Assembly: GCA_032718475.1 (NCBI GenBank)
Contig: JAUCBJ010007946.1
Span: 1 to 64,000 of the forward strand
DNA length: 64,000 nt
Direction of reading: 5' to 3'
From: Nemertoderma westbladi
Taxonomy: Eukaryota; Animalia; Xenacoelomorpha
Shown here one piece after another: positions 14,607-64,000 of this stretch (positions within the stretch are counted from its first letter, which is position 1; each line of letters starts with the position of its first letter). The translations under genes were made by a program, and so were the position numbers. A model generated the notes under the pieces. That model was not told the origin of the DNA. It ran no database searches and saw nothing but the letters and a program-made list of their open reading frames with translations.

Positions 14607-14637
14607 TGTTACCGACTGGTAGTAACAACCGCCTGAA

Positions 14638-33678: not shown

Positions 33679-33687
33679 GAATCATTA

Positions 33688-33911
33688 CTTTCAGGTCTTC
33701 AGGTTGTTTTTATTTATTTTCAGGTCTTCAGGTTGTTTTTATTTATTTTCAGGTCTTCAGGTTGTTTTTATTTATTTTCAGGTCTTCAGGTTGTTTTTAT
33801 TTATTTTCAGGTCTTCAGGTTGTTTTTATTTATTTTCAGGTCTTCAGGTTGTTTTTATTTATTTTCAGGTCTTCAGGTTGTTTTTATTTATTTTCAGGTC
33901 TCCAAGTTGTT
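33688..33911 (+). repeat. 29-bp tandem repeat of the exon 5 splice acceptor (7 copies plus the real junction)
   Basis: Unit CAG|GTCTTCAGGTTGTTTTTATTTATTTT at 33692, 33721...33866; real junction CAG|GTCTCCAAGTTGTT at 33895. Confidence 0.95.
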
Positions 33912-34050
33912 CTTAAGTCTATCTTATGTGCCTTAGCTCCACTATTACAGATCGCCTTGCTGCTTCTTTTCGTTATTTTTATATTTGCTATCATGGGAAT
34001 GGAATTGTTTATGCCATATTTTCATAATGCTTGCTACAATAATCAAACAA
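33898..34050 (+). CDS. Cav2: Cav2 exon 5 (IS5)
   Basis: [38 protein letters not shown]; donor GTGAGT. Confidence 0.93.
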
Positions 34051-34377
34051 GTGAGTCATTTAAAAACATTATGATCACAAATACGAATATGAAAAGGGTG
34101 AATGTAGTGGGGTTGGATTTCGTTGGATGCGTTGTAAATTAATATGATCGCACCAATAACTCCATCCTACGCATTGATATTATATTCTCTCCAGAATTCA
34201 TATTATTAATCCAATTGTACTTAGAAGTAATGCAAGTATATATAAATACAAAGTGGGAAACACATTCAATCAATATTGCCAATATTATTTTGGTGGAATA
34301 ATACCTTTTATCTGTGTCAAAGATGCATTGTGTAGTATATTTTTCACAACTTGCTAATGATTTATATTATTATAAAG

Positions 34378-34616
34378 GTGCGATAGTGGACAATCCGCAA
34401 ATATGTTCTCCCAAAGAAGACGCTTATATTGTAACTAGTACAGGCGAACCATACTATTGTCCCCAGGGAGACACATGTCATGAAGGTCACTCTGGTACCA
34501 CTTTCTATTGGGAGGGTCCCAATTACGGTATCACCAACTTTGATAACATATTCTACTCCTGTATTACTGTATTCCAATGTATAACTATGGAGGGATGGAC
34601 TGATGTGCTTTACAAT
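34378..34616 (+). CDS. Cav2: Cav2 exon 6 (domain I pore loop)
   Basis: [15 protein letters not shown]...[16 protein letters not shown]. Confidence 0.93.
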
Positions 34617-34973
34617 GTTAGTTTCAAAACAAAATGTTATATATATTGTGTAAAATATTAAACGTGATTTGAAAGTTAAACAAAGTAAGAAATACATATG
34701 TAAAAGAGATCCACCTATTGTATATATACATAAACAAAATGGTCCACCGTTATACTATATCGTATATATATATATACATAACTTATATCGTATATACCTT
34801 TATAGTATAACAATACATAAACATAGCAGATGCACGACAATTTAGTCCCAGACAATTTGGCCCCGTATTCTTTCAAAAACATAACATATATTCTCATACA
34901 CACCCAAAACATATACGCATAAAAGGTCTAAATATATGGTATCTCAATTAGCAATATTGTCATATATTTTTAG

Positions 34974-35077
34974 GTAAATGGTTATATGCACCTCTTCTAT
35001 GGAGTGATATTCTTTCTACCCTTGATCCTGATTGGCTCATTTTTTATGCTGAATCTAGTACTGGGAGTACTTAGTGG
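34974..35077 (+). CDS. Cav2: Cav2 exon 7 (IS6)
   Basis: FFLPLILIGSFFMLNLVLGVLSG. Confidence 0.93.
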
Positions 35078-36859
35078 GTTAGTGCTTGTAGTATACAATC
35101 CTTTAAATGTACTCCTTTGAATTAGTGCTTTTTTCACTATAGTTCTTATTTAAATAATAGATAGGTACTTAGTAGGTGTTGGTGAAATGACAACTTTTAT
35201 GCTATTTCATTATTTCCAAGGGTAACAGTGAACAGTCCTAGATAATGATAAATATGATTAATTTTGTCAAGGCCTAAAGCCCTTCCACCAATCTCTAATT
35301 AATTTATAGGATTACTAGTTTCGATACCTACACGAATATCTATGTATGTAAATTAAATTATGTAGTAAACATATTTGACATATTTGCTATCGGTCTTCTG
35401 ATGGTCTACTTCAAATGTGTTTCAACTTCTTATATATTTATACCAGAGAGTTGTCGTAGAATGAGCTTTTAAGTACAGGATTATTGCTGCTGCAGTTACA
35501 GTGTCAAGAAAACTCGGAAATTGTTTCTGGAGAGTTATGCTCGATTTTCACAGTGGCAGTGCAGTTAAGCAGTGCAAACAGATGATGCATATATTAATCT
35601 GCATCATATGGTTGTCGTTAAACCTACATAGCATCCTGATGTATGCGCCATCAAATGATCTGGTTTCCTCTCAGTCAAGTCCCCCCAACATTGGCTTCCA
35701 TGCAATGCAATTTGATCTACTACAGTAGATCAAATTGCAGTAGTAGATCAAACTACAGTTAGGGATAAGTTATGTTTAAAGAACGGAATAGGAATATTGT
35801 TTGCTAACGGATACTGTAGACGGACATCCCGGGGTTCGAAGGTCTAATAAGTCGAGCCGTTCTAAATGCGGTCTCAACTACCGGTCTCAATTTAATCGGT
35901 AGTCTTCCTTCTAAGGTCCGCCAACCACTGCTAATCCCCCGCGAACAGCGGAAGAATCGAATAATCTTCCTATTCTCGGGCGTACAGCTGTTGCTAACTG
36001 TGGCAAATGTGTAACCTCACCAGGGCTACTCTCTCCAGAAGGGGATATTTATTACTAAGTAGTGAAGCCTTATCATCAGTTGTCAGTAGTTCAGGGTGCG
36101 CACTGGGGCGCGGGCTAATTTAATTTTATAATTTTATCCGAAAATATCTAATAATTCTGAATACCGAATGTGCTAAACCTGGGTCAAACAGTTTTCAATA
36201 GGACCGGATTACCTAGCGTTTCGAGTGCCAACCTATATCTATATACTGCAACTGTTATATCAACTGATCAAAATAACTGAATGAATAACGTTCTAGCTAA
36301 TATTTTGTCCGCAAAATATAGTACTGACAGGTTTTATTTCAATCTCTTAACTTATGGAAAAGTGAAATCCTGGTATTCTTCACATGGGCGAATAATTACG
36401 CCTAATATCGCTACCCTTTTTATACTAAATTTTGGCTGAAACTAAAATTTATTGGATAACTAAATTTTGGTTATAAGCGAATATAGAAACTAAACTTAAG
36501 GTTTGGTTATCGAAATCAGCTACACTTGACTTAGTTATCTAGATTGTACTGAGATACCTAAATTGGCTAGGTTGGTCTGTCTTGGTCGGACTTAGACTGA
36601 AATACGAAAGGTGTTTCCGGCCTGTCAACGGTTTAAAAAGACTTTCACCAAAGCCCCAAGTGTGAAGCAGGACCCACACGGCATCCGCCCCACCCTATAG
36701 TGATCCCAAAACATACCCGGTACTTCCCTTTAATAAATAGAAACCCCGTAGTTTGTCATCTTGTCCACCTGCTTCCAGACGCGCTCCCGGTAGGCACTTC
36801 CAAAGCCGCCTACTCCACGCGTTTTAACATGCGAACCGGTAAGCCGGTGTAGTGTACCG

Positions 36860-37360
36860 CACCGACAAGCAACATTAGCGGGCAGATTATATAATATGCA
36901 ATCCAAAGTTAATTCACGGTAACAAATTGCAGAAAACAAGAAAAATAATCAGCACACAACAGCTAAATCAAACTATCAGCTAACACTAACTGAAACTGGT
37001 AAGAGAGAAAAAACAGTGAATAACAGACTCAATACAGTGAATAAGTCACCCACATTCAAGCACAAAGCTTCTACCATTAACCCTATTAAAACCGGGGGTG
37101 GGTCAATATCCACCGACAAGCAACATTAGCGGGCAGATTATATAATATGCAATCCAAAGTTAATTCACGGTAACAAATTGCAGAAAACAAGAAAAATAAT
37201 CAGCACACAACAGCTAAATCAAACTATCAGCTAACACTAACTGAAACTGGTAAGAGAGAAAAAACAGTGAATAACAGACTCAATACAGTGAATAAGTCAC
37301 CCACATTCAAGCACAAAGCTTCTACCATTAACCCTATTAAAACCGGGGGTGGGTCAATAT
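36860..37360. repeat. Tandem duplication, 2 x 251 bp
   Basis: CACCGACAAGCAACATTAGCGGG...GGTCAATAT at 36860 and 37111. Confidence 0.93.
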
Positions 37361-38480
37361 GACCCCCCCCCCCCGTGGTTTTTTTATTATAATTCTGAAA
37401 CAAACGCAGTTGGGAATCTGAAATTTTATGACTTTTCCTAAAAATCTATTGTCTTCCTAGTAGTGAAAACCGTTTTCAAAAATATTGGGTACTTTTCGAG
37501 TTATAGCACCATTTTTTAACCCTACTTTTGGCACTTTTTTGAGACGTTTTTTGAAAATTACATTTCATTAAATATGAATTGTAACATCTCTATTTTTGAT
37601 TTACACCGGTTTTGTGGTGTTAGAAATTTGATGGAATTCATATCAATTGATTTAGAAATTTCAAACTTGTATTTTTCGGCGGGTACCAAATTTTGGTGCC
37701 AGCACCAAACTTTGAAATAAGACAATTTTGTAAATTGAACGTTTGAAACTTGTTTTTTACGCAATTGGGGTTTTTTGGGTTTCTGGATTCGATGAAATAT
37801 ATACGAGTTGCACCAAGCGTATCAAACTTGTATTTTTCGGTGCTGTGTGCAAATTTTGGTGCTAGCACGAAATTTTGAAAATCCATTCAATAGATAAAAT
37901 TGCTTGTGACAATTTATTTCTTGCGTTTTAGAGGTTTATGGCTGTTCTGAATTCAATGGAAAATATAATTATCGAACTAGACATCTCAAACTTGTATTTT
38001 TCGGATGTGGGTGCAAAATGTGGTGCTAGCACCAAATTTTGAAAACCATCAAATATATCAATTGATTGTGTCACCTTGTTTCTTGCGTTATACGGGTTTG
38101 TGATGGTTCTGAATTCAATGGAATCAGTAAAAATTTCATAAGAGTTCTCAAACTTGTATTTTTCGCCGGTGGGTGAAAATTGTTGTGCCAGCACCAAATT
38201 TTGGAAAATATGCAAATTGATAAGTAGATAGTATCACCTTGTTTCTTGCGTTATACGGGTTTATGAGGGTCCTGAATCCGATGGAATCAATAAAAACAGC
38301 ACTGGACATCGCAAACTTGTACTTTTTGGTGATGGGTACGAAATTTGGTGCTAGCACCAAAATTTGCCAAATTAAGCCGAAAAATACAAGTAGCAATGAT
38401 CTGGCATATTAGAAATGTATTCCATTAGAATCAGCGCCCTCGAAAACCTGAAAATGTGAATTTATAGCATCGTATAAGTG
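37332..38480. mobile_element. piggyBac-like non-autonomous fragment with ~120-bp internal subrepeats
   Basis: Starts TTAA|CCCT. AAACTTGTATTTTTC...GGTGCTAGCACCAAA recurs about every 120-165 bp over 37660-38370. No right TIR found. Confidence 0.5.
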
Positions 38481-39524
38481 AATTAAAAATTTTGTGTTCT
38501 AACTGAAAAGTGCTGGTTACTTGTTTTTTTCATTTTTTTCCTACGCAGGGAGAACTAAACAGCCATTTATAGTAATCATATCATTTTTTAATATTTTCCA
38601 ATGTATTTTGCACCCCAGAAAACCTGTATTGAAAAATAATTAGCCGAAACGTAAATACCTAATACATACAAGTAATACTGTATTACTTCAATTTTCTTCC
38701 GAATAGCACTAATTATCATTTATCAAAGAAAATCGTAAAAAATTCGGGTCTGTTTCATCGGACGATTACCTACTGAACATAAAAACGATTACCTAGGCAT
38801 TTTAATAGATAACAAATTTTTCCTTCCCTTTTCTTGGCTTTAGAGCTGTTTTGGACCCATTATCTAAAGTAGCAAAAGTGACCAACATGTTCAGATTGAG
38901 TGATTTTACATGGGTTACTGATTAATGTCGTCTTTTTTGTTGACAACTGAGAAACACTTCCTTCAATCTAGTTAAAATACATTATTGGCGCCTTTCAATG
39001 ACCGTGACAGAAAACCAATATCATCTGCAACATTCGTCATCATCTATCAGATGTCAACTTGTTACTATATCAATATTATGTTTATACAACAGCGTACATA
39101 TGTTTGTGCAGTATATTTAGCACAAAGGATAGGAAATAGTGCTAATATATCATAAAAAGGTGAACGTCCCAGTGTTACTCAAAATGATATGAATTACCAT
39201 TGGATGTAAAAACAAAATGTCATAAAACGTCAAACATGGCTCAAATTGAAGAAATAATCCGCTAAGTACAACATTAGCATCAATATCAACATGAAAAGGC
39301 GAGGCGTGAAACTCTATCGAAAGTTTGAAAAATTCAACTAAGCTACTAACAAACATAAATATATATGTGGATATTTATTCTATCAGTGTCAAAAATATGT
39401 TTAGGGAGGATATCTCCCAGGTGGAAGCCAATTTGATTTCCTTACAATAACTTTCTACACGCCTTTTCTATTATATTGAGCATTATTATTAGTAATAGCA
39501 TAATATATAAATGTGCCGGAATAT

Positions 39525-39790
39525 TTAGGAAGTACTCCTAAATACCTGAAGTTGGGGCCTACAATGCGGTTCTAGAATTGGTAATTAGTGATTCAGAACT
39601 TATTATTAGACAAACAAACACCTCCAGCTCCACTTCCATCCACAGAATTGATGATGAATTGCCTACCACCCCAAACATAAGTATTCACCCGACTATAAAT
39701 AGAGCTTTCAGTCCATCTGTCGGCATTAACTGTGTAGTACAATATATCCAGTAGTTCAGTTCCAATGGCCCCAACAGTACTCTTAAGGCA
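39525..39790 (-). mobile_element. Highly degraded LINE RT fragment
   Basis: Minus-strand VLLGPLEL (~39760) and NFRYLGVL (~39540) resemble the RT motifs GSVLGPLLF and KYLGV, in the expected order. Confidence 0.4.
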
Positions 39791-40061
39791 AAATACCTGG
39801 TTTGCCCAGTTCTACCTATGTAGAACATGAGACCATCACCGAACTTAGATGTTTAAATCCTGGTGTTTTCTGGATCTGATGGCATTATCAGTCTGGTACT
39901 GCATTACAGGCCGATCGTGTATAAACGATATATCAGTCAAAGAGGCTAACTGTTAATAGTGTAGTTAACATTTATATGTACTACTGTAAAAAAAACTGTA
40001 CATACCATGTAATCATAATAATCCTACTAATAATAGGTAAATTGACCTATTTTGATTTTAG

Positions 40062-40177
40062 AGAGTTTGCCAAAGAAAAGGAGCGGGTGGAAAATCGTGA
40101 AGCTTATCAAAAGTTAAGACGGAAACAACAACTGGAGCGGGAGTTGGAAGGTTACTTGGATTGGCTCGCTAAAGCAG
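40062..40177 (+). CDS. Cav2: Cav2 exon 8 (I-II linker, AID)
   Basis: [38 protein letters not shown]. Confidence 0.96.
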
Positions 40178-40364
40178 GTTATTAACAACATAAATGATAG
40201 CTGGAAAGTTATTGAAAGTAGAGGGTATTGAAACAGTCTGTAAGCCTTTGCTGAGAGAGCTACTAAACCTAACACATTACTCAAGCTACAAAACTCATAC
40301 TCAAACGTAGTACTCAAAACTCATACGTAATAAGTATTTCATTCAAGTATTTTAACAACTTCGA

Positions 40365-40775
40365 CGGCGGGGCTAGCTCAGTTGGTTGAGTGCTGGGCTT
40401 ACACATTCATTGGTTGCTGATTCTAGCCCTGCATCGTTCTCAGCCTTTCAAAGACTGGGTTCAATAAAATGAAAATGAGATCGACAAGAAAGCTGTGCCG
40501 TGTTTATTGTGGCATGAACAATGAACACATCTCCAATCAGTCTCTATAGAACATTGGAGGTGTTTCATTTGTCTCCCCTAGCTTGACACTTGAACGAAGC
40601 CGCCTCCGCTTTGCAGGACATTGCTTTAGACATAAGGGCTAACCGGTGCATAATCGTATGCTTTGGGTAACTGATGGAGTGAATAAACATGGCAGGCAGC
40701 CAGTCCATGACTTTTTTGAGACGCATCTCAAGGACCCTCTGGCTTTAAAAATTGCGGATGACATGCGGACACAAA
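40365..40775 (+). mobile_element. Degenerate tRNA-like head followed by an RTE-like LINE 3' fragment
   Basis: TAGCTCAGTTGG A-box-like sequence at ~40374; HISNQSL and SRLRFAGHCFR peptides at 40525-40630. Confidence 0.5.
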
Positions 40776-41808
40776 ATTTAGTACACTAACGGTACTCATA
40801 TTAAATGCTCTTTAATGCATTACTTTTTAATCATACCATAAATACCTCCTAACTTCAATCTATGTATTTAAAAGATAAAACCCGTATATGACATTTAATT
40901 GAAAAAAATATAATTTTAAAATAAATCAGTATAATCAACAATTATTTATTAATGATTAATTATAATGTCCCAAGTCATTTTACTTGAATTATGTGGCATC
41001 TGCAACCAAACAACAGTCAGACATTGCCATCTGTCACACATGCTAAATTGAATTGCAGCTATATTTATATTTATTAGTTGGGGGTGGATATTTATCCGAA
41101 ATATTAATTCCTGACACATAGAAATCAGTGAGGCACTTTGATGAAGAGTACAAGTCATTAGCTGGAAGAATATATGCGCCACGCGGTGTTTCGGATAATA
41201 AGGTTGTCTGCAATTCGTCCCAGAACACACTGTCTTCCAATCAGAAATTCATTTATGTCAAGTGCTTATTAGACTCCAGAGATGAGGACAACCCAGTAGC
41301 TTCTGGACTTTGCCAACACACTCTAGTTTTTCAACCAATACCTATCGACCATATGGTTGTGTGGTTGCACTTCTCAACAGTAGTGGTGTAGCTTGCGCTT
41401 TCCAAGATACTTATTTTATGTGACACCATCGATTTTTTCCCCAAATCGATTCCATTTCCTCTCCATTTACATAGACTGAAAATTAGAATCAAACAGAATG
41501 ATAGTACATACCGTCTCAATTAGATGCATTAGTACGATGCATGAGTACAGCGGTCGTGATTAGCTTAATCCGTAAAATCTCTAGCATGGGTCGGAATGAT
41601 ATTCTGTGGCTACCGGCATAGTGTATACTCTTAGAATTACTTTTATTACAGGAAGGGATCTAGGGACCTTCCTGTAATAAATGTATCATAACAAACACCT
41701 CGAAAAAAATACAGCTTGCCAAAACCTTGTTACTATCAATAATAAAAATCAGGGGCTAATAAAATGGCAGCTGGCTTTGAAATTAATACTCCATATCTCA
41801 AGAACCTG

Positions 41809-41861
41809 TGGCCTAGTGGTTGTTGTCTCGGCTTCCACCTCGAGGTCCTAGGTTCGAATCC
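41809..41861 (+). promoter_or_regulatory. Type 2 RNA Pol III internal promoter (A and B boxes), repeated in each unit
   Basis: A box TGGCCTAGTGG at 41809-41819; B box GGTTCGAATCC at 41851-41861. Confidence 0.8.
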
Positions 41862-41912
41862 GACACCACGCTGATGAGACCCAGTAAGGTCGAAACGCGT
41901 ACGAGGTTTGGA
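41859..41912 (+). ncRNA. Type I hammerhead ribozyme, copy 1 (one stem I mismatch)
   Basis: ACCACG-CTGATGA-GACC(CAGTAA)GGTC-GAAA-CGCG-TA-CGAGGT; predicted cut after 41901. Confidence 0.88.
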
Positions 41913-42270
41913 GAGATATGAGATATTAATTTCAAGAAAAATTACGCGATTCCTAAATTTGTACACTACCCGGTTATAAAGTACGCATGTGATGGGATTA
42001 GTCCTACAATTGCGCCAATAAAAGATAAGTTATTTTCGGTAAAATAAACTTATCATTCGAGGTTAAGACCCCTAGATCCCTTCCTGTAATAAATGTATCA
42101 TAACAAACACCTCGAAAAAAATACAGCTTGCCAAAACCTTGTTACTATCAATAATAAAAATCAGGGGCTAATAAAATGGCAGCTGGCTTTGAAATTAATA
42201 CTCCATATCTCAAGAACATGTGGCCTAGTGGTTGTTGTCTCGGCTTCCACCTCGAGGTCCTAGGTTCGAA

Positions 42271-42324
42271 TCCGACACCACGCTGATGAGACCCAGTAAG
42301 GTCGAAACGCGTACGTGGTTTGGA
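42271..42324 (+). ncRNA. Type I hammerhead ribozyme, copy 2
   Basis: CTGATGA at 42283; perfect stem I ACCACG/CGTGGT. Confidence 0.92.
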
Positions 42325-42681
42325 GAGATATGAGATATTAATTTCAGAAAAATTACGCGATTCCTAAATTTGTACACTACCCGGTTATAAAGTACGCATG
42401 TGATGGGATTAGTCCTACAATTGCGCCAATAAAAGATAAGTTATTTTCGGTAAAATAAACTTATCATTCGAGGTTAAGACCCCTAGATCCCTTCCTGTAA
42501 TAAATGTATCATAACAAACACCTCGAAAAAAATACAGCTTGCCAAAACCTTGTTACTATCAATAATAAAAATCAGGGGCTAATAAAATGGCAGCTGGCTT
42601 TGAAATTAATACTCCATATCTCAAGAACCTGTGGCCTAGTGGTTGTTGTCTCGGCTTCCACCTCGAGGTCCTAGGTTCGAA

Positions 42682-42735
42682 TCCGACACCACGCTGATGA
42701 GACCCAGTAAGGTCGAAACGCGTACGTGGTTTGGA
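42682..42735 (+). ncRNA. Type I hammerhead ribozyme, copy 3
   Basis: CTGATGA at 42694. Confidence 0.92.
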
Positions 42736-43092
42736 GAGATATGAGATATTAATTTCAAGAAAAATTACGCGATTCCTAAATTTGTACACTACCCGGTTAT
42801 AAAGTACGCATGTGATGGGATTAGTCCTACAATTGCGCCAATAAAAGATAAGTTATTTTCGGTAAAATAAACTTATCATTCGAGGTTAAGACCCCTAGAT
42901 CCCTTCCTGTAATAAATGTATCATAACAAACACCTCGAAAAAATACAGCTTGCCAAAACCTTGTTACTATCAATAATAAAAATCAGGGGCTAATAAAATG
43001 GCAGCTGGCTTTGAAATTAATACTCCATATCTCAAGAACCTGTGGCCTAGTGGTTGTTGTCTCGGCTTCCACCTCGAGGTCCTAGGTTCGAA

Positions 43093-43146
43093 TCCGACAC
43101 CACGCTGATGAGACCCAGTAAGGTCGAAACGCGTACGTGGTTTGGA
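43093..43146 (+). ncRNA. Type I hammerhead ribozyme, copy 4
   Basis: CTGATGA at 43105. Confidence 0.92.
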
Positions 43147-43503
43147 GAGATATGAGATATTAATTTCAAGAAAAATTACGCGATTCCTAAATTTGTACAC
43201 TACCCGGTTATAAAGTACGCATGTGATGGGATTAGTCCTACAATTGCGCCAATAAAAGATAAGTTATTTTCGGTAAAATAAACTTATCATTCGAGGTTAA
43301 GACCCCTAGATCCCTTCCTGTAATAAATGTATCATAACAAACACCTCGAAAAAATACAGCTTGCCAAAACCTTGTTACTATCAATAATAAAAATCAGGGG
43401 CTAATAAAATGGCAGCTGGCTTTGAAATTAATACTCCATATCTCAAGAACCTGTGGCCTAGTGGTTGTTGTCTCGGCTTCCACCTCGAGGTCCTAGGTTC
43501 GAA

Positions 43504-43557
43504 TCCGACACCACGCTGATGAGACCCAGTAAGGTCGAAACGCGTACGTGGTTTGGA
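43504..43557 (+). ncRNA. Type I hammerhead ribozyme, copy 5
   Basis: CTGATGA at 43516. Confidence 0.92.
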
Positions 43558-43915
43558 GAGATATGAGATATTAATTTCAAGAAAAATTACGCGATTCCTA
43601 AATTTGTACACTACCCGGTTATAAAGTACGCATGTGATGGGATTAGTCCTACAATTGCGCCAATAAAAGATAAGTTATTTTCGGTAAAATAAACTTATCA
43701 TTCGAGGTTAAGACCCCTAGATCCCTTCCTGTAATAAATGTATCATAACAAACACCTCGAAAAAAATACAGCTTGCCAAAACCTTGTTACTATCAATAAT
43801 AAAAATCAGGGGCTAATAAAATGGCAGCTGGCTTTGAAATTAATACTCCATATCTCAAGAACCTGTGGCCTAGTGGTTGTTGTCTCGGCTTCCACCTCGA
43901 GGTCCTAGGTTCGAA

Positions 43916-43969
43916 TCCGACACCACGCTGATGAGACCCAGTAAGGTCGAAACGCGTACGTGGTTTGGA
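43916..43969 (+). ncRNA. Type I hammerhead ribozyme, copy 6
   Basis: CTGATGA at 43928. Confidence 0.92.
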
Positions 43970-44327
43970 GAGATATGAGATATTAATTTCAAGAAAAATT
44001 ACGCGATTCCTAAATTTGTACACTACCCGGTTATAAAGTACGCATGTGATGGGATTAGTCCTACAATTGCGCCAATAAAAGATAAGTTATTTTCGGTAAA
44101 ATAAACTTATCATTCGAGGTTAAGACCCCTAGATCCCTTCCTGTAATAAATGTATCATAACAAACACCTCGAAAAAAATACAGCTTGCCAAAACCTTGTT
44201 ACTATCAATAATAAAAATCAGGGGCTAATAAAATGGCAGCTGGCTTTGAAATTAATACTCCATATCTCAAGAACCTGTGGCCTAGTGGTTGTTGTCTCGG
44301 CTTCCACCTCGAGGTCCTAGGTTCGAA

Positions 44328-44381
44328 TCCGACACCACGCTGATGAGACCCAGTAAGGTCGAAACGCGTACGTGGTTTGGA
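44328..44381 (+). ncRNA. Type I hammerhead ribozyme, copy 7
   Basis: CTGATGA at 44340. Confidence 0.92.
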
Positions 44382-44740
44382 GAGATATGAGATATTAATT
44401 TCAAGAAAAATTACGCGATTCCTAAATTTGTACACTACCCGGTTATAAAGTACGCATGTGATGGGATTAGTCCTACAATTGCGCCAATAAAATATAAGTT
44501 ATTTTCGGTAAAATAAACTTATCATTCGAGGTTAAGACCCCTAGATCCCTTCCTGTAATAAATGTATCATAACAAACACCTCGAAAAAAATACAGCTTGC
44601 CAAAACCTTGTTACTATCACATAATAAAAATCAGGGGCTAATAAAATGGCAGCTGGCTTTGAAATTAATACTCCATATCTCAAGAACCTGTGGCCTAGTG
44701 GTTGTTGTCTCGGCTTCCACCTCGAGGTCCTAGGTTCGAA

Positions 44741-44794
44741 TCCGACACCACGCTGATGAGACCCAGTAAGGTCGAAACGCGTACGTGGTTTGGA
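44741..44794 (+). ncRNA. Type I hammerhead ribozyme, copy 8
   Basis: CTGATGA at 44753. Confidence 0.92.
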
Positions 44795-45248
44795 GAGATA
44801 TGAGATATTAATTTCAAGAAAAATTACGCGATTCCTAAATTTGTACACTACCCGGTTATAAAGTACGCATGTGATGGGATTAGTCCTACAATTGCGCCAA
44901 TAAAAGATAAGTTATTTTCGGTAAAATAAACTTATCATTCGAGGTTAAGACCCCTAGATCCCTTCCTGTAATAAATGTATCATAACAAACACCTCGAAAA
45001 AAATACAGCTTGCCAAAACCTTGTTACTATCAATACTTAGAATTACTGACATCGTCACTTGACATAGGCAAGCAAGGTGACTCGCCTACATTATGTAACA
45101 ATAGGAATCATATTGATCACTATGGAGCCAGGCGTAGAGTGACCTAGATACACATTGTTAGACCACTTAGCTTATACATATTGCTAACTGTATTATGTTG
45201 ATGTTCTAATATTGTTCGAGATTATTTATTACGTCGTTTCTGTTGCAG

Positions 45249-45404
45249 ACGAGATTGATCTTAACGAGTCTAAGATGACCGACGCCGAGAAGGCGATGTA
45301 CCGCGCCCAGAGAGGTTTAAGCAAAGCTCACATATCAATGGATGACGATGATGAAGATGAGGAAATGGACACAGATATTGAGGAAAACGATAACATTGAA
45401 ATAG
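45249..45404 (+). CDS. Cav2: Cav2 exon 9 (acidic I-II linker)
   Basis: DEIDLNESKMTDAEK...DDDDEDEE...IEI; phase 1 at both ends, matching neighbours. Confidence 0.85.
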
Positions 45405-47781: not shown

Positions 47782-47906
47782 AGCGATAACAAATTTTATT
47801 AAAATATCGCTTTTTTTTAAACGTGCACAATATCAACATTCGAAATATTTTAAATAGATATAATGTATATTGTAGCTCATTAACTCATTGTTCTACACTA
47901 TTCCAG

Positions 47907-48131
47907 GTGCCGTCAACCCATTCACTCGGAGCCAACAGAGACGGAGACCCACTAAATGCACTCTATTTTGCATCCGTTTCCGGAAACACGAGAAAAGCTT
48001 CCGGTTCTTCCTGAAACATGTTATTAAATCCCAGGCATTCTATTGGACTATTATTGTCCTTGTCTTTCTCAATACGATATTTGTCGCAATAGAACATTAC
48101 GACCAACCAGAGTGGTTGACAAAATTCCTAG
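47907..48131 (+). CDS. Cav2: Cav2 exon 10 (IIS1)
   Basis: [47 protein letters not shown]. Confidence 0.94.
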
Positions 48132-49636: not shown

Positions 49637-49811
49637 GTAAGTTTCTTTATGCGACTTACTACATTACTTCCAGTTTATTGTTAGAATTTGAATTATCAAT
49701 TTAATTGTAAAATTATAATTTGACCCATAACTGTATTTTTATTTTTTTCTTTATTTTCATATTATTATTTTTCAAGGTGTAAGTTACATTCTCATATTGT
49801 ATTACTTTTAG

Positions 49812-49921
49812 GTTATCATTGGAAGTGTAATTGACATGATAATGTACAACGTTAATGGCACTCGCATAGGAATTCGGGTACTGAGGGCGCTGAGATTGCT
49901 ACGAATATTCAAAGTCACCAA
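49812..49921 (+). CDS. Cav2: Cav2 exon 12 (IIS3-S4)
   Basis: VIIGSVID...GIRVLRALRLLRIFKVT. Confidence 0.93.
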
Positions 49922-50054
49922 GTGCGTTACATACTTCCGTAATATAAAAGGAAATATTGTGAACAATAACGTCACAACACAACGCATAACACTATGTAAT
50001 AACGGGGATTTTTTGTTACTTTTATTTTAACATTTTATTCTAATTTGTTTATAG

Positions 50055-50186
50055 GTATTGGAAATCGTTAAGGAATTTAGTCGTCTCGTTGCTCAACTCA
50101 ATACGCGCTATATTATCTCTGCTGTTTCTTCTCTTTCTTTTCATCGTAATATTCGCTCTACTGGGGATGCAGATATTTGGAGGGAG
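50055..50186 (+). CDS. Cav2: Cav2 exon 13 (IIS5)
   Basis: [43 protein letters not shown]. Confidence 0.94.
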
Positions 50187-53100: not shown

Positions 53101-53270
53101 TGCTATCATTCATTATCCGTTTATTGATATTAATTACCGAGCATCAAAGAGATAACAACGAACTCTTATTTTTCCCATTCTCAATACCACGGTGACGCGT
53201 AGTCTGATTAACCGGTCGGGATCCCTTGATCCCGTCACATGGTTTCATTATATTTGGAGGGAGGTTGGTT
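50173..53270 (+). repeat. 26-bp tandem repeat of the exon 13 end plus donor, ~96 copies, interrupted near its end by a solo LTR
   Basis: Unit ATATTTGGAGGGAG|GTTGGTTTCATT (14 exon nt + 12 intron nt). Confidence 0.97.
52638..53239. mobile_element. Solo LTR (602 bp) with 5-bp TSD TGGTT
   Basis: Termini TGTGAGCGG...CCGTCACA; TGGTT at 52633-52637 and 53240-53244. Confidence 0.88.
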
Positions 53271-54026
53271 GGGAAGATGTGCGGTACATAGAATTGGAGC
53301 GCATCCCAGATGTTTTTGTGCCTGTATCTGCAGATAGTTGATTATTAGTATTTAACTACCCCAACTGTGTTAACAGATGAAGCCAATTCGGCCGCCCATA
53401 AACAATTAATTATTAGTCGGCTTCAATGTAATTTTTCGAACATTCAAGGAGATTATGTAAATCTCCATCATATTACTCCAATGCTAAGTTTCCATTCTTT
53501 CCATTGATAAGAAAATGAAAAATTTGTTGATGTTGACCAATGAGAAGAAAGAGTGAAATAGACAGACATAGAGATATATAGATAGGTAGTTATATACATA
53601 CATATACCCCCATGATATACATATTTTCGATATTTCATATACATAAATCATTTTGGGATCATGTTTCCCACATAACATGCTTGCTTTGAACGAACCTGCC
53701 AATTTACTCTTTCAATGTATACCAATTCAATTATTGTTCTAGGGTAGGGGTTACAAGCAAGGATCATCAGTCATTCCTGCAGGGTGAGGTTGGGTTTTGG
53801 CAATAAGATGTTACGGGTTGTGCAAGTTAGGCCTAATTTGTTAAATGAACATGTATCTAATGTAATATGTACCCTGCGTGGCTACCTGGTGTAAATACTG
53901 TCAATCAAGCGATCTGATACAATATTCATAGCTTGACAACTGAGAAAAAAAATTAGCATTATAGTATACCTTTAAGTATAGGTTTTCGTTATATAATAAT
54001 GTAATTGTATATGGTAAATTTTTTAG

Positions 54027-54217
54027 GTTTAACTTTCCCGGCGGAAAACCCTCCGCTAACTTTGATACTTGGTCAATAGCAATGCTAACAGTCTTCCAGA
54101 TTCTCACTGGTGAGGATTGGAACGCTGTGATGTACAACGGAATATACAGTCTGTCTAGTGGGGGGAAGGCCTGGAGCATGCTTGCTTCTGTGTACTTCAT
54201 TCTTCTATGCCTGATAG
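54027..54217 (+). CDS. Cav2: Cav2 exon 14 (domain II pore, start of IIS6)
   Basis: [39 protein letters not shown]...YFILLCLI. Confidence 0.95.
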
Positions 54218-54481
54218 GTGAGTAAGCGCAGCTCTCCGTTTAGTATAAACGTCACTTTTGAACTTCTCCATCCGTCAGTCTGTTGGCCGTCCCACCAGAT
54301 GAGTACGAGGATGGCATCGATATAAAGCTTTGGTGGTGGGTTGTTATTTGTTCTGTTGGTAATTTGTTAATTATAATTTATACCCAGGAACTGGTGAAAA
54401 ATGACTAGTGCAATTCAATTAGTTAAATTACTAAATATATGTATTTATTCATTATATAATATTTATTAATGTGTTTTGCAG

Positions 54482-54603
54482 GAAATTACACGTTATTAAA
54501 CGTATTTTTGGCCATCGCTGTCGATAACTTAGCTAGCGCACAGCAACTTACGAAGGCAGAGGAAAGAGAAGAATTGGAAAAACAACTTAAAAACAATATT
54601 CAG
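54482..54603 (+). CDS. Cav2: Cav2 exon 15 (end of IIS6)
   Basis: [31 protein letters not shown]. Confidence 0.92.
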
Positions 54604-55084
54604 GTTCAGTTCACCTTATCTATAAACCTTGACCTACCGTACATCCTGCTGCTCTTGTTCATTTGCTTGGACATCCCATTTGACTCCCAGACTGTTTAAG
54701 TGTAGTACAATGCTGCCGGCCTTACTGCCTGAATAAAAGGGGGGGGGGGGGGGGGGGGGGGGGGGTCCGGTGGAGTACAGTTCTACCGGTTTATGGTCAA
54801 CACTTCGAAAGACCATGTCAACACTTCGAAAAGGATTTGATGTGGTTAGGGTAGGTTATAGAATTAGTATATGGCAGTAAGAATATAAGGACAACTTATT
54901 ATATAAGTTTCTTAGTAATAAGGAATAATATTGCGAAATATATGAATTACTTTGGTACTATCATTTCATATAATAGATTTTCGTTACCGGTGAAGAAACT
55001 GCTTGATTTGTTTCTGCCCTAAATCGTTGAACTCTGCCATCTCAGCCTGTTGACGTGTATCCCGAATTAATTAAACGCCACTAA

Positions 55085-56250
55085 TTGAATGCCACCCCAA
55101 ATCAGATGATTTAACACCAAAATAAATTATTTTGCACCAAATATATATTTTTTTGTAGCACCAATTCGCATCCCCCAAATTTGAATATCCTTCTCACCAA
55201 AAACAATTATTCGTCCCCCAAAAACAATTATTCATCCCCCAAAAACAATTATTGATTCCCCAAAAACAATTATTCATCCCCCAAAAATAATTACTTGTCA
55301 ACCTAAAAAAATTATTCCAGCACCAAATATTTTATATTAACTACGCTTTGGTCAGTTGCCATGCTTCAGTTACAGTATTCGTATCGATAGGCCTATTGCC
55401 TATCTATTATTGCCTATGGCGTATTACTTATTCTGTTATTAGGTTTCAGTATTACGGCAGTACTGAAGTTTTCAGATAGGGGGGGAAACTGGACGCAAAA
55501 AAAATTCATCCTTCTCCAGAGGAAATTCGACGCAAGTAACAGCTGATTCTTCTCAAAAATAAAACTGTAACCTGTTCTATTGTGTTTAGTTTATTGTTAA
55601 AATAACGTGCCACTGTAACCTGCTCCTTTCCCTAAATTGAGAATTTAACATTGAGGCGGGATATTAATTCGCCAAGGCGGGTTTTGCGTCCAATTTCCCC
55701 TCCTGTCTCGAAGTTTATATCTAAATTCCAGTATTTATTTTGGGGGATTATGTATTTATTTTGGGCAAAAATGTATTTGTTTTGGGGGAAAATGTATTTT
55801 TATTTTGGGGGATAATGTATTTGTTTTGGGGGGGAATGTATTTGTTTTGGGCGAAAATGTATTTGTTTTGGGGGAAAATGTATTCGTTTTGGGGGAAAAT
55901 GTATTTGTTTTGGTTGAAAATCTATTTGTTTTGGGGGAAAATGTATTTATTTTGGGCGAAAATATATTTGTTTTGGGAAAATTTTTAATTATTTGGGGGA
56001 TTTGTCATTTATTTTGGTGCTAATAATTGGTTTTGGGGAGCATTTATTTATTTTGGTATTGAATAATTTGTTTTTGGTGTTGAAAAATTTGTTTTGGTGT
56101 TTGAATAATTTATTTGGGGTGACTTTATTTTACAATCATTATTTGTCACATTATTTAATTTGGTGGCATATTCGGTTTACACCGAATGGGGGTGTATATA
56201 ATAATATTTATTCATTATTTAATTTGGTGTAAAATAATTTTTTTGGTGAT
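55085..56250. mobile_element. Foldback-like element with inverted subrepeat arms and an inner ~240-bp TIR segment (55470-55712)
   Basis: CCCCAAAAACAATTATT repeats on the left versus ATTTGTTTTGGGGGAAAATGT repeats on the right; inner TIR GGGGAAACTGGACGCAAAA / TTTTGCGTCCAATTTCCCC. Confidence 0.55.
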
Positions 56251-57599
56251 ATTCTCATCAATTTTGAGATAACTTTAATTGGTAGCCTTAATTAAATTGT
56301 AACTAAAATAAATACGAAATTTTGTTTTCGTTTTTATTATTATTTCATTATTATTTTTATGTGGTAACAGTGGCACTAAATTATTTTCGAAGTGTTGACT
56401 ATTTCGAAGAGTTGACGCGGAATCATGCTGCCTACAAGCTACTGATTGCTGTATGATGCCTGCCTGTATTATTTTGTAATGTAAGCTGGCTTTGCTTGGT
56501 GTAACCCCGAGTTTCAAAATATTACCCAATCTAATATAGCACAATATGTAAATAAATAACAAACAACATTAACTCACTATCTATAAATGCCTTTCTAATG
56601 TAAATTTGGTATGTAATTTTTTCTTACAAAGTTGTTACATCAGTAACAACTAAGAAAGTCTACACGTATGAATTTTTAACATTATGAATTGCTTCTATGA
56701 TAGTGGAGATCAATTATTCATTAACTTACCTTGAATAACATGAAGTTAAACTGTTAACAGACATGACGTATTTTAGCACGTTAAAACATATATATATTCT
56801 CATTTTTGGAAATATATGTTAAATGTTTATGATCAATATGACATCATTGGCAATAATAATTATTTATTACTTGGGAAAAAAGAGTACAACTTTTTTTTCA
56901 TTATTCTTGAGGCATTTTATTTACCGAGCGCCTGGGAGGTTAATAAATGGTCGAGAGAATATTGAAAAAATAATATTCTGCGTTTTTTTATTTTTTAAAC
57001 TTTTTTAAATTTTTAAATTTTAATTTTTAAATTTTTAAACGTAATTTTATTCTTAAATTGGTACTATTTTGTTGCTCAATTCTTTAATAAAAGATAGTGC
57101 AAATATTTATTACGAAAACTAAAAGAGCCGCTTAACTACACAAACCAATATTGGATATTGAGTTCCGTTTTGAAGTACGCTTTGCAGACACTAAAATTGC
57201 AATAAATTCTGAGTGTGTGAAGGGATTTTGCTTAAATTACGTGGAAACCTTTTCTACTTCGATGCTCTTTAAACACATGCAATATAATTCAAGAGATTCC
57301 ACCAAAAATATTTTAACTTACTTTTTTCGCCGGGAAAAATCCAATTGATAACTTTTTTTATCTTGGGAAAAAGTACTTTTTCTCCCGATTTGATGTATAT
57401 TCGAGCGAAAAAGTAACAATTTAAGATTAAAATTACTATTTTTAATATTCTATTAATTAATAATTTGGAAGGGTTTACTGTGGAAGATCACCCATGGTGG
57501 TGAACAGGCATTCCTTGGCTTAACGAGCCTAAAAGATTCTCCCATTCATTAATTTATTTTGCCCACTTGCGGACGTTATTGTTATATTTTACTTTATAG

Positions 57600-57958
57600 A
57601 ATGCCTCTCCAATTCCATCCAAGGCACCTAGTCCAAAATTTATACACCCAGAAAAGGTGAAGACCACCAATCAATTATCAGTGCCAGATGAGAAACCACA
57701 CGGGGTATTCAACGAAGCTTATCTCGACAACGAAGGTAGCCACCACCAACAACACAATCCCTCAGAGCCGTATAGCGTGTCTTTCAGACTGGACAATAAA
57801 TCATTGGAGGCTGATGGTGTGCCTACGACGCCCCCCAAGATAAGTAGACTGGACAAAATGAAAGGCATCACAGATGAAGATAACCCCGGTGATGACGACG
57901 ATGGCCCCGTACCTATACTCCCTTATACATCTCTATTTATTTTGAGCTCCACAAACAA
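57600..57958 (+). CDS. Cav2: Cav2 exon 16 (II-III linker)
   Basis: Ends DDGPVPILPYTSLFILSSTN; phase fits both neighbours. Confidence 0.88.
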
Positions 57959-58137
57959 GTAAGATGCATAGCAACATCTAAGCCGCAGTTGTTACTAGTT
58001 TTTTTTACAGTTATTGTATTATTTTTTACGACGATTAAACAACCTCGAAATGAGAACAGATGTCATGTTCGTTTACAGATGTTTGAGAGTGGTTGTTTGC
58101 GGGAATAATAATCGAACATTTTAATGCGACCACAGAA

Positions 58138-59203
58138 GATTTATATGATCACTGAGATTTTATATAATCACTGATATTTTATAGGATCACTGATATTTTA
58201 TAGGGATCACCGATATTTTATAGGATCACTGATATTTTATAGGATCACTGTTATTTTATAGGATCACTGATATTTTATAGGATCACTGATATTTTATAGG
58301 ATCACTGATATTTTATAGGATCACTGATATTTTATAGGATCACTTATATATTATAGGATCACTGATATTTTATAGGATCACTGATATTTTATAGGATCAC
58401 TGATATTTTATAGGATCACTGATATTTTATATGATCACTGATATTTTATAGGATCACTGATATTTTATAGGATCACTGATATTTTATAGGATCACTGATA
58501 TTTTATAGGATCACTGATATTTTATAGGATCACTGATATTTTATAGGATCACTGATATTTTATAGGATCACTGATATTTTATAGGATCACTGATATTTTA
58601 TAGGATCACTGATATTTTATAGGATCACTGATATTTTATAGGATCACTGATATTTTATAGGATCACTGATAATTTATAGGATCACTGATATTTTATAGGA
58701 TCACTGATATTTTATAGGATCACTGATATTTTATAGGATCACTGATAATTTATAGGATCACTGATATTTTATAGGATCACTGATATTTTATAGGATCACT
58801 GATATTTTATAGGATCACTGATATTTTATAGGATCACTGATATTTTATAGGATCACTGATATTTTATAGGATCACTTATATATTATAGGATCACTGATAT
58901 TTTATAGGATCACTTATATATTATAGGATCACTGATATTTTATAGGATCACTGATATTTTATAGGATCACTGATATTTTATAGGATCACTGATATTTTAT
59001 AGGATCACTGATATTTTATATGATCACTGATATTTTATAGGATCACTGATATTTTATAGGATCACTGATATTTTATAGGATCACTGATATTTTATAGGAT
59101 CACTGATATTTTATAGGATCACTGACATTTTATAGGTTCACTGATATTTTATAGGATCACTGATATTTTATAGGATCACTGATATTTTATAGGATTACTG
59201 ATA
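58138..59203 (+). repeat. 19-bp minisatellite CACTGATATTTTATAGGAT, ~56 copies, acceptor-like
   Basis: Direct periodicity; ends ~85 bp upstream of exon 17. Confidence 0.95.
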
Positions 59204-59286
59204 GTACGATGGTAAAATTAGTAACATTTCATACGATCATTAATATTTCATACCATTTTATTAATATTTTATGTGATTATTTGCAG

Positions 59287-59416
59287 GATTCGCATTGGAG
59301 CCCATTATATTGTAAATATGCGACACTTTGAGAACGTAATTCTTTCTCTTATAATTCTGAGCAGTATCTCATTGGCGTTGGAAAGTCCTATTTATGTTAA
59401 TGGTGATTTGAACAAT
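59287..59416 (+). CDS. Cav2: Cav2 exon 17 (IIIS1)
   Basis: IRIGAHYIVNMRHFENVILSLIILSSISLALESP. Confidence 0.93.
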
Positions 59417-59616
59417 GTGAGTGAAAAAAGTTCCTGCCTTATTTTGTAACTATATTGATGACTATTACTATTGTATTTACTATTTAAGTGATGAACGAAT
59501 TGAATTACTTCGTAAAATTTGAAAGGGCGAATATATATTTTTTAATTTATTCGCTAAAATTCACTATTATAATAAAACCGTTAAGATAGCTGTAAAAACA
59601 TTCATTATGTTTTTAG

Positions 59617-59676
59617 GTGATTCAAAAATTAGACTATGGTTTTACTGCTGTTTTCCTGATGGAGTTTTGTTTAAAG
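59617..59676 (+). CDS. Cav2: Cav2 exon 18 (IIIS2)
   Basis: VIQKLDYGFTAVFLMEFCLK. Confidence 0.92.
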
Positions 59677-59960
59677 GTAAGTAAATTTCAAGTGTGTAGT
59701 GGCGAATAGTAAGGGGGGGGGGGGGGGGGGACCAAAACAATCGACTTGTGTTAGAAATAGTGAAAGGAAACTAATTCCATTATTAAGCATTATTGTTGAA
59801 TCAGAAACATTTCGATCCGACCCAATTGTTAGAACTTGTCATTTCATTCATTTTATTGTCTAGTTCGGTAGGGTTTCGGTCAAGACAATATTGTTAAATA
59901 TAGACAATAATATTAAAGTTGTTGTTTACTTATTTTTGCTACATTATATTTCCCGTTCAG

Positions 59961-60070
59961 GTAACAGACTTGGGATTGGTTTTGCATCCTGGTGCTTATT
60001 TTCGTGACGGATGGAATATAATTGACGCGGTCGCTTGTATTTGCGCTACAATCAGTGTAATACTACAATT
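59961..60070 (+). CDS. Cav2: Cav2 exon 19 (IIIS3)
   Basis: VTDLGLVLHPGAYFRDGWNIIDAV. Confidence 0.93.
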
Positions 60071-60336
60071 GTAAGACTTTATTTCTATTGTAAAACATAT
60101 TTAATTGAAACAAAAATACATTTAATATTTAATACAACTGTCAATTTAAGATTGTTACCTAAGAAATAATGAGTTAAACAAAATGTAAGGTTGTTTTAAT
60201 TAATTATAAGTTGAGTTACAATAATGTAAGGTTGTTTCAAAAAGTAAAGCTTCAGTAATGTAATGATTGTTTCCATTAAATATAATGTTAAGCTACAATA
60301 ATGTAGGTTGTTACTAAATCTAATTTGTTTCCAAAG

Positions 60337-60433
60337 GACGGACGTTGGTGGTAGCGCAGGTGGAATTAGATCTTTGCGGGTTTTAAGAGTTCTTCGGCCA
60401 CTGAAAACGATTAAACGGGTTCCCAAACTAAAG
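60337..60433 (+). CDS. Cav2: Cav2 exon 20 (IIIS4)
   Basis: [23 protein letters not shown]. Confidence 0.94.
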
Positions 60434-63400
60434 GTTGGTTATTATTTACGGGTTCCCAAACTAAAGGTTAGTTATTATTTACGGGTTCCCAAACTAAAGT
60501 TTAGTTATTATTTACGGGTTCCCAAACTAAAGGTGGGTTATTATTTACGGGTTCCCAAACTAAAGTTTGGTTATTATTTACGGGTTCCCAAACTAAAGGT
60601 TAGTTATTATTTACGGGTTCCCAAACTAAAGGTTAGTTATTATTTACGGGTTCCCAAACTAAAGGTGGGTTATTATTTACGGGTTCCCAAACTAAAGGTT
60701 AGTTATTATTTACGGGTTCCCAAACTAAAGTTTGGTTATTATATTTACGGGTTCCCAAACTAAGGGTTGGTTATTATTTACGGATTCCCAAACTAAAGGT
60801 TAGTTATTATTTACGGGTTCCCAAACTAAAGGTTGGTTATTATTTACGGGTTCCCAAACTAAAGTTTAGTTATTCTTTACGGGTTCCCAAACTAAAGGTT
60901 GGTTATTATTTACGGGTTCCCAAACTAAAGTTTGGTTATTATTTACGGGTTCCCAAACTAAGGGTTGGTTATTATTTACGGGTTCCCAAACTAAAGGTTG
61001 GTTATTATTTACGGGTTCCCAAACTAAAGTTTAGTTATTCTTTACGGGTTCCCAAACTAAAGGTTGGTTATTATTTACGGGTTCCCAAACTAAAGTTTGG
61101 TTATTATTTACGGGTTCCCAAACTAAGGGTTGGTTATTATTTACGGGTTCCCAAACTAAAGGTTGGTTATTATTTACGGGTTCCCAAACTAAGGTTTAGT
61201 TATTATTTACGGGTTCCCAAACTAAAGGTTAGTTATTATTTACGGGTTCCCAAACTAAAGTTTGGTTATTATTTACGGGTTCCCAAACTAAAGGTTGGTT
61301 ATTATATTTACGGGTTCCCAAACTAAAGGTTGGTTATTATTTACGGGTTCCCAAACTAAAGTTTAGTTATTATTTACGGGTTCCCAAACTAAAGGTTGGT
61401 TATTATATTTACGGGTTCCCAAACTAAAGGTTGGTTATTATTTACGGGTTCCCAAACTAAAGTTTGGTTATTATTTACGGGTTCCCAAACTAAAGGTTGG
61501 TTATTATTTACGGGTTCCCAAACTAAAGGTGGGTTATTATTTACGGGTTCCCAAACTAAAGTATAGTTATTATTTACGGGTTCCCAAACTAAAGGTTGGT
61601 TATTATATTTACGGGTTCCCAAACTAAAGGTGGGTTATTATTTACGGGTTCCCAAACTAAAGTATAGTTATTATTTACGGGTTCCCAAACTAAAGGTTGG
61701 TTATTATTTACGGGTTCCCAAACTAAAGGTTAGTTATTATTTACGGGTTCCCAAACTAAAGTTTGGTTATTATATTTACGGGTTCCCAAACTAAAGTTTG
61801 GTTATTATTTACGGGTTCCCAAACTAAAGGTTAGTTATTATTTACGGGTTCCCAAACTAAAGGTTAGTTATTATTTACGGGTTCCCAAACTAAAGGTTGG
61901 TTATTATTTACGGGTTCCCAAACTAAAGGTTAGTTATTATTTACGGGTTCCCAAACTAAAGTTTGGTTATTATATTTACGGGTTCCCAAACTAAAGGTTA
62001 GTTATTATATTTACGGGTTCCCAAACTAAAGTTTAGTTATTATTTACGGGTTCCCAAACTAAAGGTTGGTTATTATTTACGGGTTCCCAAACTAAAGGTT
62101 GGTTATTATTTACGGGTTCCCAAACTAAAGGTTGGTTATTATTTACGGGTTCCCAAACTAAAGGTTGGTTATTATATTTACGGGTTCCCAAACTAAAGGT
62201 TAGTTATTATATTTACGGGTTCCCAAACTAAAGTTTAGTTATTATTTACGGGTTCCCAAACTAAAGGTTGGTTATTATTTACGGGTTCCCAAACTAAAGG
62301 TTGGTTATTATTTACGGGTTCCCAAACTAAAGGTTGGTTATTATTTACGGGTTCCCAAACTAAAGGTTGGTTATTATATTTACGGGTTCCCAAACTAAAG
62401 GTTGGTTATTATTTACGGGTTCCCAAACTAAAGGTTGGTTATTATTTACGGGTTCCCAAACTAAAGGTTGGTTATTATTTACGGGTTCCCAAACTAAAGG
62501 TTGGTTATTATTTACGGGTTCCCAAACTAAAGGTTAGTTATTATTTACGGGTTCCCAAACTAAAGGTTGGTTATTATTTACGGGTTCCCAAACTAAATGT
62601 TAGTTATTATTTACGGGTTCCCAAACTAAAGGTTGGTTATTATTTACGGGTTCCTAAACTAAAGGTGGGTTATTATTTACGGATTCCCAAACTAAAGGTT
62701 GGTTATTATTTACGGGTTCCCAAACTAAAGGTTGGTTATTATATTTACGGGTTCCCAAACTAAAGGTTGGTTATTATTTACGGGTTCCCAAACTAAAGGT
62801 TAGTTATTATATTTACGGGTTCCCAAACTAAAGGTTGGTTATTATTTACGGGTTCCCAAACTAAAGGTTGGTTATTATATTTACGGGTTCCCAAACTAAA
62901 GGTTGGTTATTATTTACGGGTTCCCAAACTAAAGTTTGGTTATTATATTTACGGGTTCCCAAACTAAAGGTTGGTTATTATTTACGGGTTCCCAAACTAA
63001 AGGTTGGTTATTATTTACGGGTTCCCAAACTAAAGGTTGGTTATTATTTACGGGTTCCCAAACTAAAGGTTAGTTATTATTTACGGGTTCCCAAACTAAA
63101 GTTTAGTTATTATATTTACGGGTTCCCAAACTAAAGGTTAGTTATTATTTACGGGTTCCCAAACTAAAGGTTAGTTATTATTTACGGGTTCCCAAACTAA
63201 AGGTTAGTTATTATTTACGGGTTCCCAAACTAAAGGTTAGTTATTATTTACGGGTTCCCAAACTAAAGGTTGGTTATTATTTTCGGATTCCCAAACTAAA
63301 GGTTAGTTATTATTTACGGGTTCCCAAACTAAAGTATAGTTATTATTTACGGGTTCCCAAACTAAAGGTTAGTTATTATTTACGGGTTCCCAAACTAAAG

Positions 63401-64000
63401 TATAGTTATTATTTACGGGTTCCCAAACTAAAGGTTAGTTATTATTTACGGGTTCCCAAACTAAAGGTTGGTTATTATTTACGGGTTCCCAAACTAAAGG
63501 TGGGTTATTATTTACGGGTTCCCAAACTAAAGTATAGTTATTATTTACGGGTTCCCAAACTAAAGGTTGGTTATTATATTTACGGGTTCCCAAACTAAAG
63601 GTGGGTTATTATTTACGGGTTCCCAAACTAAAGTATAGTTATTATTTACGGGTTCCCAAACTAAAGGTTGGTTATTATTTACGGGTTCCCAAACTAAAGT
63701 TTGGTTATTATTTACGGATTCCCAAACTAAAGGTTAGTTATTATTTACGGGTTCCCAAACTAAAGTTTGGTTATTATATTTACGGGTTCCCAAACTAAAG
63801 TTTGGTTATTATTTACGGGTTCCCAAACTAAAGGTTAGTTATTATTTACGGGTTCCTAAACTAAAGGTGGGTTATTATTTACGGATTCCCAAACTAAAGG
63901 TTGGTTATTATTTACGGGTTCCCAAACTAAAGGTTGGTTATTATATTTACGGGTTCCCAAACTAAAGGTTGGTTATTATTTACGGGTTCCCAAACTAAAG
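60415..64000 (+). repeat. 33-bp (some 35-bp) tandem repeat of the exon 20 end plus donor, >100 copies, runs off the window
   Basis: Unit ACGGGTTCCCAAACTAAAG|GTTGGTTATTATTT (19 exon nt + 14 intron nt). Confidence 0.97.

Follow-up and report, generated by a model that had tools for sequence, protein, structure and literature searches.

The 64,000-nucleotide window analyzed here, the start of contig JAUCBJ010007946.1 of Nemertoderma westbladi (GenBank assembly GCA_032718475.1), contains coding exons 1–20 of a Cav2-type voltage-gated calcium channel alpha-1 gene, together with four minisatellites whose repeat units span exon-intron junctions of that gene. When joined, the 20 exons encode 1033 amino acids with zero stops, covering domains I, II, and III as far as the S4-S5 linker; the gene runs beyond the window. 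Five exons scanned against Pfam matched Ion_trans, the best match of exon 6 among solved structures was Cav2.2, and the closest matches of the whole model, among 120 homologue matches, were echinoderm Cav2 channels (49%); the homologue searches returned no close relative. A quick tree (22 rows: the model and 21 selected homologues; no bootstrap) placed the model inside the Cav2 clade and not Cav1, with Shimodaira-Hasegawa-like approximate likelihood ratio test values of 99–100, and grouped it with bilaterian Cav2 on a long branch. Intron 1 (30568–30987) is an AT-AC intron with the donor ATATCCTT and the branch-like motif TTCCTTAAC, and is probably of the U12 class by consensus.

A first reading of the same sequence, hereafter the original prediction, had described four minisatellites with units straddling real exon-intron junctions of the gene and a fifth mimicking such a junction. 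Tandem arrays were located using Tandem Repeats Finder (TRF), with copy numbers as assembled for one haplotype, and periods of 29, 49, 26, 19, and 33 bp were recovered at the predicted positions (Table 1). Comparison of the units with the adjoining exons confirmed that four of the arrays cross a junction, the exon share of the unit being 18 (15 matching), 5, 14, and 19 nt. The unit at the acceptor of exon 5 (acceptor 5) consists of 11 nt from the end of intron 4 and 18 nt of a diverged copy of the exon start; the full copies are near-identical to each other, and the last one is the coding edge of exon 5 (33898–34050). The other three units lie at donors and match the exon exactly: the last 5 nt of exon 9 (45249–45404) with 44 nt of intron 9, the last 14 nt of exon 13 (50055–50186) with 12 nt of intron 13, and the last 19 nt of exon 20 (60337–60433) with 14 nt of intron 20. 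A longer, gapped exon match for the donor-9 unit was considered and rejected as not significant (p = 0.076). Within the window each unit matches its own locus only and is colinear with the genome; expansion, as had been predicted, is solely toward the intron side. The seed junctions all read AG/GT (the slash marks the boundary), and in our gene model, too, the seed donors are the non-consensus GTACCC, GTTGGT, and GTTGGT.

How real the junctions are was judged from a ten-row alignment with Cav1 and Cav2 homologues. Junctions 4/5, 13/14, and 20/21 fall inside gap-free conserved blocks, and because these blocks fix the junctions, the exon-proximal copy is the probable coding one at all three. Protein conservation likewise indicates that the exon-proximal copy is likely the one used. 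Junction 9/10 falls in the variable I-II loop, where placement is less secure; the shared sequence there is 5 nt only.

The reiterated AG/GT sites, referred to here as decoys, number 45 in the donor-9 array, 93 in the whole donor-13 array (about 96 copies), and 76 in the donor-20 array, which with 14 extra acceptor-5 sites (seven TTTCAG/GT and seven CTTCAG/GT) makes 228. The predicted hundreds of decoys are therefore borne out as a count, their strengths being scores computed from sequence. The donor-13 array is interrupted by a TG...CA element, likely a solo long terminal repeat (LTR), flanked by the 5-bp target-site duplication TGGTT. In the donor-20 array, 18 units of 35 bp are interspersed among the 33-bp ones and the GT has been lost in 26 copies. 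The 3' flank of the donor-9 array can be recognized as the degenerate end of a unit (p = 0.0025). Along the arrays variants are clustered and multi-variant blocks recur; these blocks and the transposon insertion represent normal turnover. By eye, the frequent donor-20 variants (GTTAGT; GT to TT) give a more perfect short palindrome at the junction, and such variants may reflect template-switch mutation.

Table 1. Features of the Cav2 gene and its repeat arrays (positions in the window).
Feature	Position	Strand	Description	Basis
Cav2-type voltage-gated calcium channel alpha-1 gene	30236..60433	+	coding exons 1–20	open model, Pfam, tree
Acceptor-5 array	33685..33915	+	29 bp x 8, acceptor side	TRF, unit versus exon 5 comparison
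Donor-9 array	45400..47802	+	49 bp x 48.5, degenerate tail to ~47802	TRF, unit comparison
Donor-13 array	50173..52637	+	26 bp x ~95; 92 AG/GT decoys	TRF, unit comparison
TG...CA element, likely solo LTR	52638..53239	.	602 bp, target-site duplication TGGTT, within donor-13 array	sequence
Donor-13 array tail	53240..53270	+	~1.2 units past the insertion	unit comparison
19-bp intronic minisatellite	58140..59203	+	19 bp x 56, generic acceptor-like motif; membership doubtful	TRF, unit comparison
Donor-20 array	60415..64000	+	33 bp x at least 108, leaves the window	TRF, unit comparison

Boundary-spanning tandem repeats have been named mirages in amphioxus, where they were reported in Adh3 and two globin genes, BflGb6 and BflGb9 (PMC3087553, excerpted text), and also in troponin C and PGBD5 (PMC3902484, excerpted text). 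The Cav2 arrays resemble amphioxus mirages in having a unit across the exon-intron boundary (marginally so for donor 9, with its 5 nt), a duplicated splice signal, both donor- and acceptor-side examples, and concerted turnover in clusters; their units, of minisatellite size at 26–49 bp, lie within the 10–72 bp range of Adh3. Unlike the amphioxus cases, they reach about 100 copies, compared with 3–6 for BflGb6, and their host is a long-branch Cav2. For the amphioxus mirages, the excerpted text of PMC3087553 reports no interference with splicing. Human boundary repeats include the 37-bp variable number tandem repeat in intron 7 of F7 and repeats in CBS intron 13, 6-16, lamin B2, and PDGF (PMC1557585, excerpted text). 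In F7, each unit contains four exon bases (five at donor 9), the donor is non-consensus, and only the first donor is used; CBS and 6-16 additionally use two pseudo-sites each. In these genes, as here, the first unit holds the authentic donor and identical pseudo-sites follow, whereas each human gene has one array of 5–25 copies and Cav2 has four arrays, one of them acceptor-side.

The window thus contains three clear mirages (acceptor 5 and donors 13 and 20) and one marginal mirage (donor 9), and it is probable that all four arrays originated as boundary duplications, were kept by splicing, and grew by ordinary turnover. Each would have begun as a single small DNA duplication across the boundary, seeded by short microhomology; the AAATA common to the end of exon 9 and the 3' flank of the donor-9 array would fit such an origin. 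The donor-13 seed may have included filler, because its array stops five bases short of a complete unit. Splicing from the exon-proximal site would restore the mRNA and remove the extra copies, with the first donor presumably used as in human F7 and the arrays presumably neutral. Intron-only expansion would follow because splicing removes duplications on that side. Further growth would have come from slippage or unequal exchange, the ordinary turnover of minisatellites in a repeat-prone genome. At acceptor 5, the near-identity of the full copies, set against three mismatches to the exon among 18 nt, is consistent with a unit that drifted free of coding constraint and then expanded recently. 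The window is generally expansion-prone: large arrays away from coding exons include units of 21 bp (182 copies), 21/42 bp (over 9 kb), 60 bp (49 copies), 19 bp (56 copies), and 412 bp (8 copies).

Two groups of results weigh against this reading. The first is an excess of arrays at junctions, examined by collapsing large arrays to one unit and placing unit-length windows randomly in the gene, with wholly exonic placements barred. After merging TRF loci (period 7–60, with a poly-G run and sub-periods within larger arrays omitted), 4 of 19 loci overlapped an exon, as did 4 of the 6 with at least 8 copies, giving P = 0.0037 and 7e-5, respectively; with donor 9 discounted (3/19), P was 0.01. The second concerns splice-site strength, scored using a matrix built on the gene's own sites: 32 decoys outscore the authentic donor at donor 20 and at least 41 do so at donor 9. 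Position, not strength, would therefore have to decide which site is used, as in human F7, and by analogy with the pseudo-sites of human CBS and 6-16 some leakage into decoys is plausible. RNA structure was predicted to mask decoys at donor 9 (unpaired 0.30 versus 0.56, for the first 25 decoys) but not at donors 13 or 20.

The excess exists for this gene; the test was post hoc, on one gene chosen from very many windows, and carries no genome-wide weight. The original statement that, apart from subrepeats inside transposons, every short-unit array in the introns is seeded by a junction goes too far, as 15 of the 19 loci overlap no exon. Four of these lie within a miniature inverted-repeat transposable element (MITE)-like element at 32700–33690, and some of the remaining unclassified loci may be transposon subrepeats. 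Survival of boundary duplications removed by splicing, one of the two accounts in the original prediction, fits the arrays and explains their intron-only growth, but it does not on its own explain the junction excess, because the null already bars wholly exonic duplications. The excess suggests, as a weaker inference, some bias in origin or persistence that favors exon edges over deep intron.

Such a bias could arise if mutation is targeted to junctions and seeds the duplications there, which would be an addition to the mirage reading and not a full alternative to it. We regard this as possible, with the balance tilting against it. The source might be damage to exon edges coupled to transcription or splicing, or homologous repair that is initiated in conserved exons and slips where divergent intron alleles no longer match. 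Besides the within-gene excess under a null without exonic duplications, repeated reports from amphioxus speak for targeting, and the excerpted text of PMC3087553 calls mirages "possibly a more general phenomenon" with an unclear mechanism. AG/GT occurs at 17 of the 39 junctions of the gene, so that four AG/GT seeds out of four represent a mild enrichment (P = 0.029). All three seed donors are weak (P = 0.021), but AG-ending donors in this gene have weaker intronic parts (p = 0.015), and weakness was rejected as a separate signal once AG is given (P = 0.18); AG/GT and weak donors are one correlated, modest signal. The seeded junctions show no hairpin excess (ranks 8, 18, 30, and 37 of 39), and single units fold no better than shuffled sequences. 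RNA-templated repair, which had been proposed, finds no support, given the colinearity of the units with the genome, and a spliced-mRNA template for the donor-9 unit was rejected, as the unit lacks spliced-junction sequence and does not match the start of exon 10 (p = 0.42). A tentative and somewhat less probable extension is that tandem repeats in this lineage genuinely tend to be born at exon edges, with a preference for AG/GT, through coupling to splicing, R-loops, or allele divergence.

It is improbable that the decoys form an isoform ladder, in which in-frame sites add residues to the channel. At donor 20, where the 33-bp unit is open and a multiple of three, 6 of 76 decoys keep the frame without a stop and would add 11-residue repeats to the IIIS4-S5 linker. 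At acceptor 5, 6 of 14 decoys are in frame, inserting 7–65 residues in the IS4-S5 linker, the shortest from a second AG 21 nt upstream of the acceptor. At donor 13, 30 of 95 scanned AG/GT sites are in frame and stop-free, each inserting at least 26 residues just after IIS5, and at donor 9 none of the 45 decoys is both in frame and stop-free. Against a ladder, insertions would land in blocks that are gap-free across ten aligned channels, three of the four unit lengths are not divisible by three, and in the donor-20 array the 35-bp units disrupt the frame and the 26 copies mentioned above lack GT. Use of the decoys is predicted to be costly or harmful to the channel.

That the arrays are artefacts of assembly, or ordinary minisatellites placed by chance, is equally hard to credit. 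The assembled copy numbers may be off, and a 49-bp unit would overlap the exon by 5 nt by chance with a probability of about 0.09, which bears on donor 9. However, the variant structure of the arrays and the insertion with its target-site duplication argue against a pure artefact, and exon matches of 14–19 nt at three junctions argue against chance.

Intron gain or recursive splicing under way, with the AG/GT units acting as small introns or ratchet points, is likewise improbable: the four seeds are AG/GT, the 49-bp unit runs from GT to AG with an acceptor score of 6.0 (within the range of real acceptors), and a mirage-based model of intron gain has been proposed (PMC3087553, excerpted text), but the shortest real intron of the gene is 133 nt, the unit-junction AGs score poorly at donors 13 (-1.4) and 20 (-4.8), and no new exon or intron was seen in the gene. 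Repeats at human exon-intron boundaries can form new introns (PMC2812944, excerpted text). The suggested relation to the AGGT tandem-duplication model is a loose one. The arrays share with that model a tandem duplication that includes both AG and GT and lies at a boundary or crosses it, but the model duplicates an exonic AGGT segment to create an intron (PMC4974935, excerpted text), whereas here no intron is new and the arrays lengthen existing ones. Membership in that class was rejected on the grounds that the units hold 11–44 nt of intron and each host intron retains sequence of its own, found nowhere in the units, together with its original far splice site.

That the 19-bp array belongs with the four is not supported. 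Its unit had been predicted to mimic the exon 17 acceptor, but it matches that junction at 10 of 19 positions, no better than exons 3 and 12 and worse than exons 16, 14, 6, and 4, and the array ends 83 nt upstream of exon 17; copying from this acceptor was rejected. Its acceptor-like motif is unusually good, with a score reached by 0.9% of 5000 circular 19-mers drawn at random from the introns, and an acceptor that was lost or is cryptic may have been its source. Within the array no in-frame cassette begins; two cassettes found in intron 16 are upstream of it.

Several other elements occur in the window. In intron 8 (41667–45035, + strand), a 412-bp unit is repeated 8.2 times with a hammerhead ribozyme core in each unit (8 cores); the unit matches Rfam HH9 with E = 0.002 and 23 bits, under the gathering score of 52. 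By eye, the units appear to carry RNA polymerase III box A/B-like motifs. The array, which resembles animal non-LTR retrozymes (PMC7229834, excerpted text), lies on the sense strand and could cleave the pre-mRNA. A GC-rich array of 49 copies of a 60-bp unit (26919–29874), about 360 nt 5' of the start codon, has a donor-like GTAAGC as its very first bases, a coincidence with a probability of about 0.05, and may have arisen as a mirage from an exon of the 5' untranslated region that escaped notice. Further upstream, a 9-kb array of a purine-rich 21-bp unit (17190–26358) adjoins what by eye appears to be the 3' end of a minus-strand long interspersed nuclear element that carries a short tandem tail (~16930–17190). 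The MITE-like element, with 21-bp subterminal repeats, is present in two copies: the one in intron 4 (32700–33690) abuts the acceptor-5 array, and in the upstream one (10396–14613) the subrepeat has grown to about 182 copies. A BEL/Pao retrotransposon with a 2310-amino-acid open frame (Peptidase_A17, DUF1759) occupies 3–6932 on the minus strand and leaves the window. Rfam searches returned no matches at the gathering threshold, and no tRNA genes were found in the window.

The pattern is already described and named in amphioxus, and what is new here is its density in one gene. We found no genome-wide test of junction enrichment for mirages in the literature, most subscription papers being outside the search, and the excerpted text of PMC10078293 contains nothing on junction-spanning units. 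As the element type is known, the case is a modest one; its value lies in four arrays of up to about 100 copies, on donor and acceptor sides, in one conserved channel gene. A genome rich in mirages could allow two questions to be decided: whether repeats are really seeded at exon edges, and whether the first site is still chosen when stronger decoys follow. If exon edges are indeed hot spots, mirages would be a genome-wide mutational class with a testable origin. A single neuronal gene with hundreds of decoys, either identical to the authentic site or stronger, would then also serve as a natural experiment on the choice of splice sites by position.

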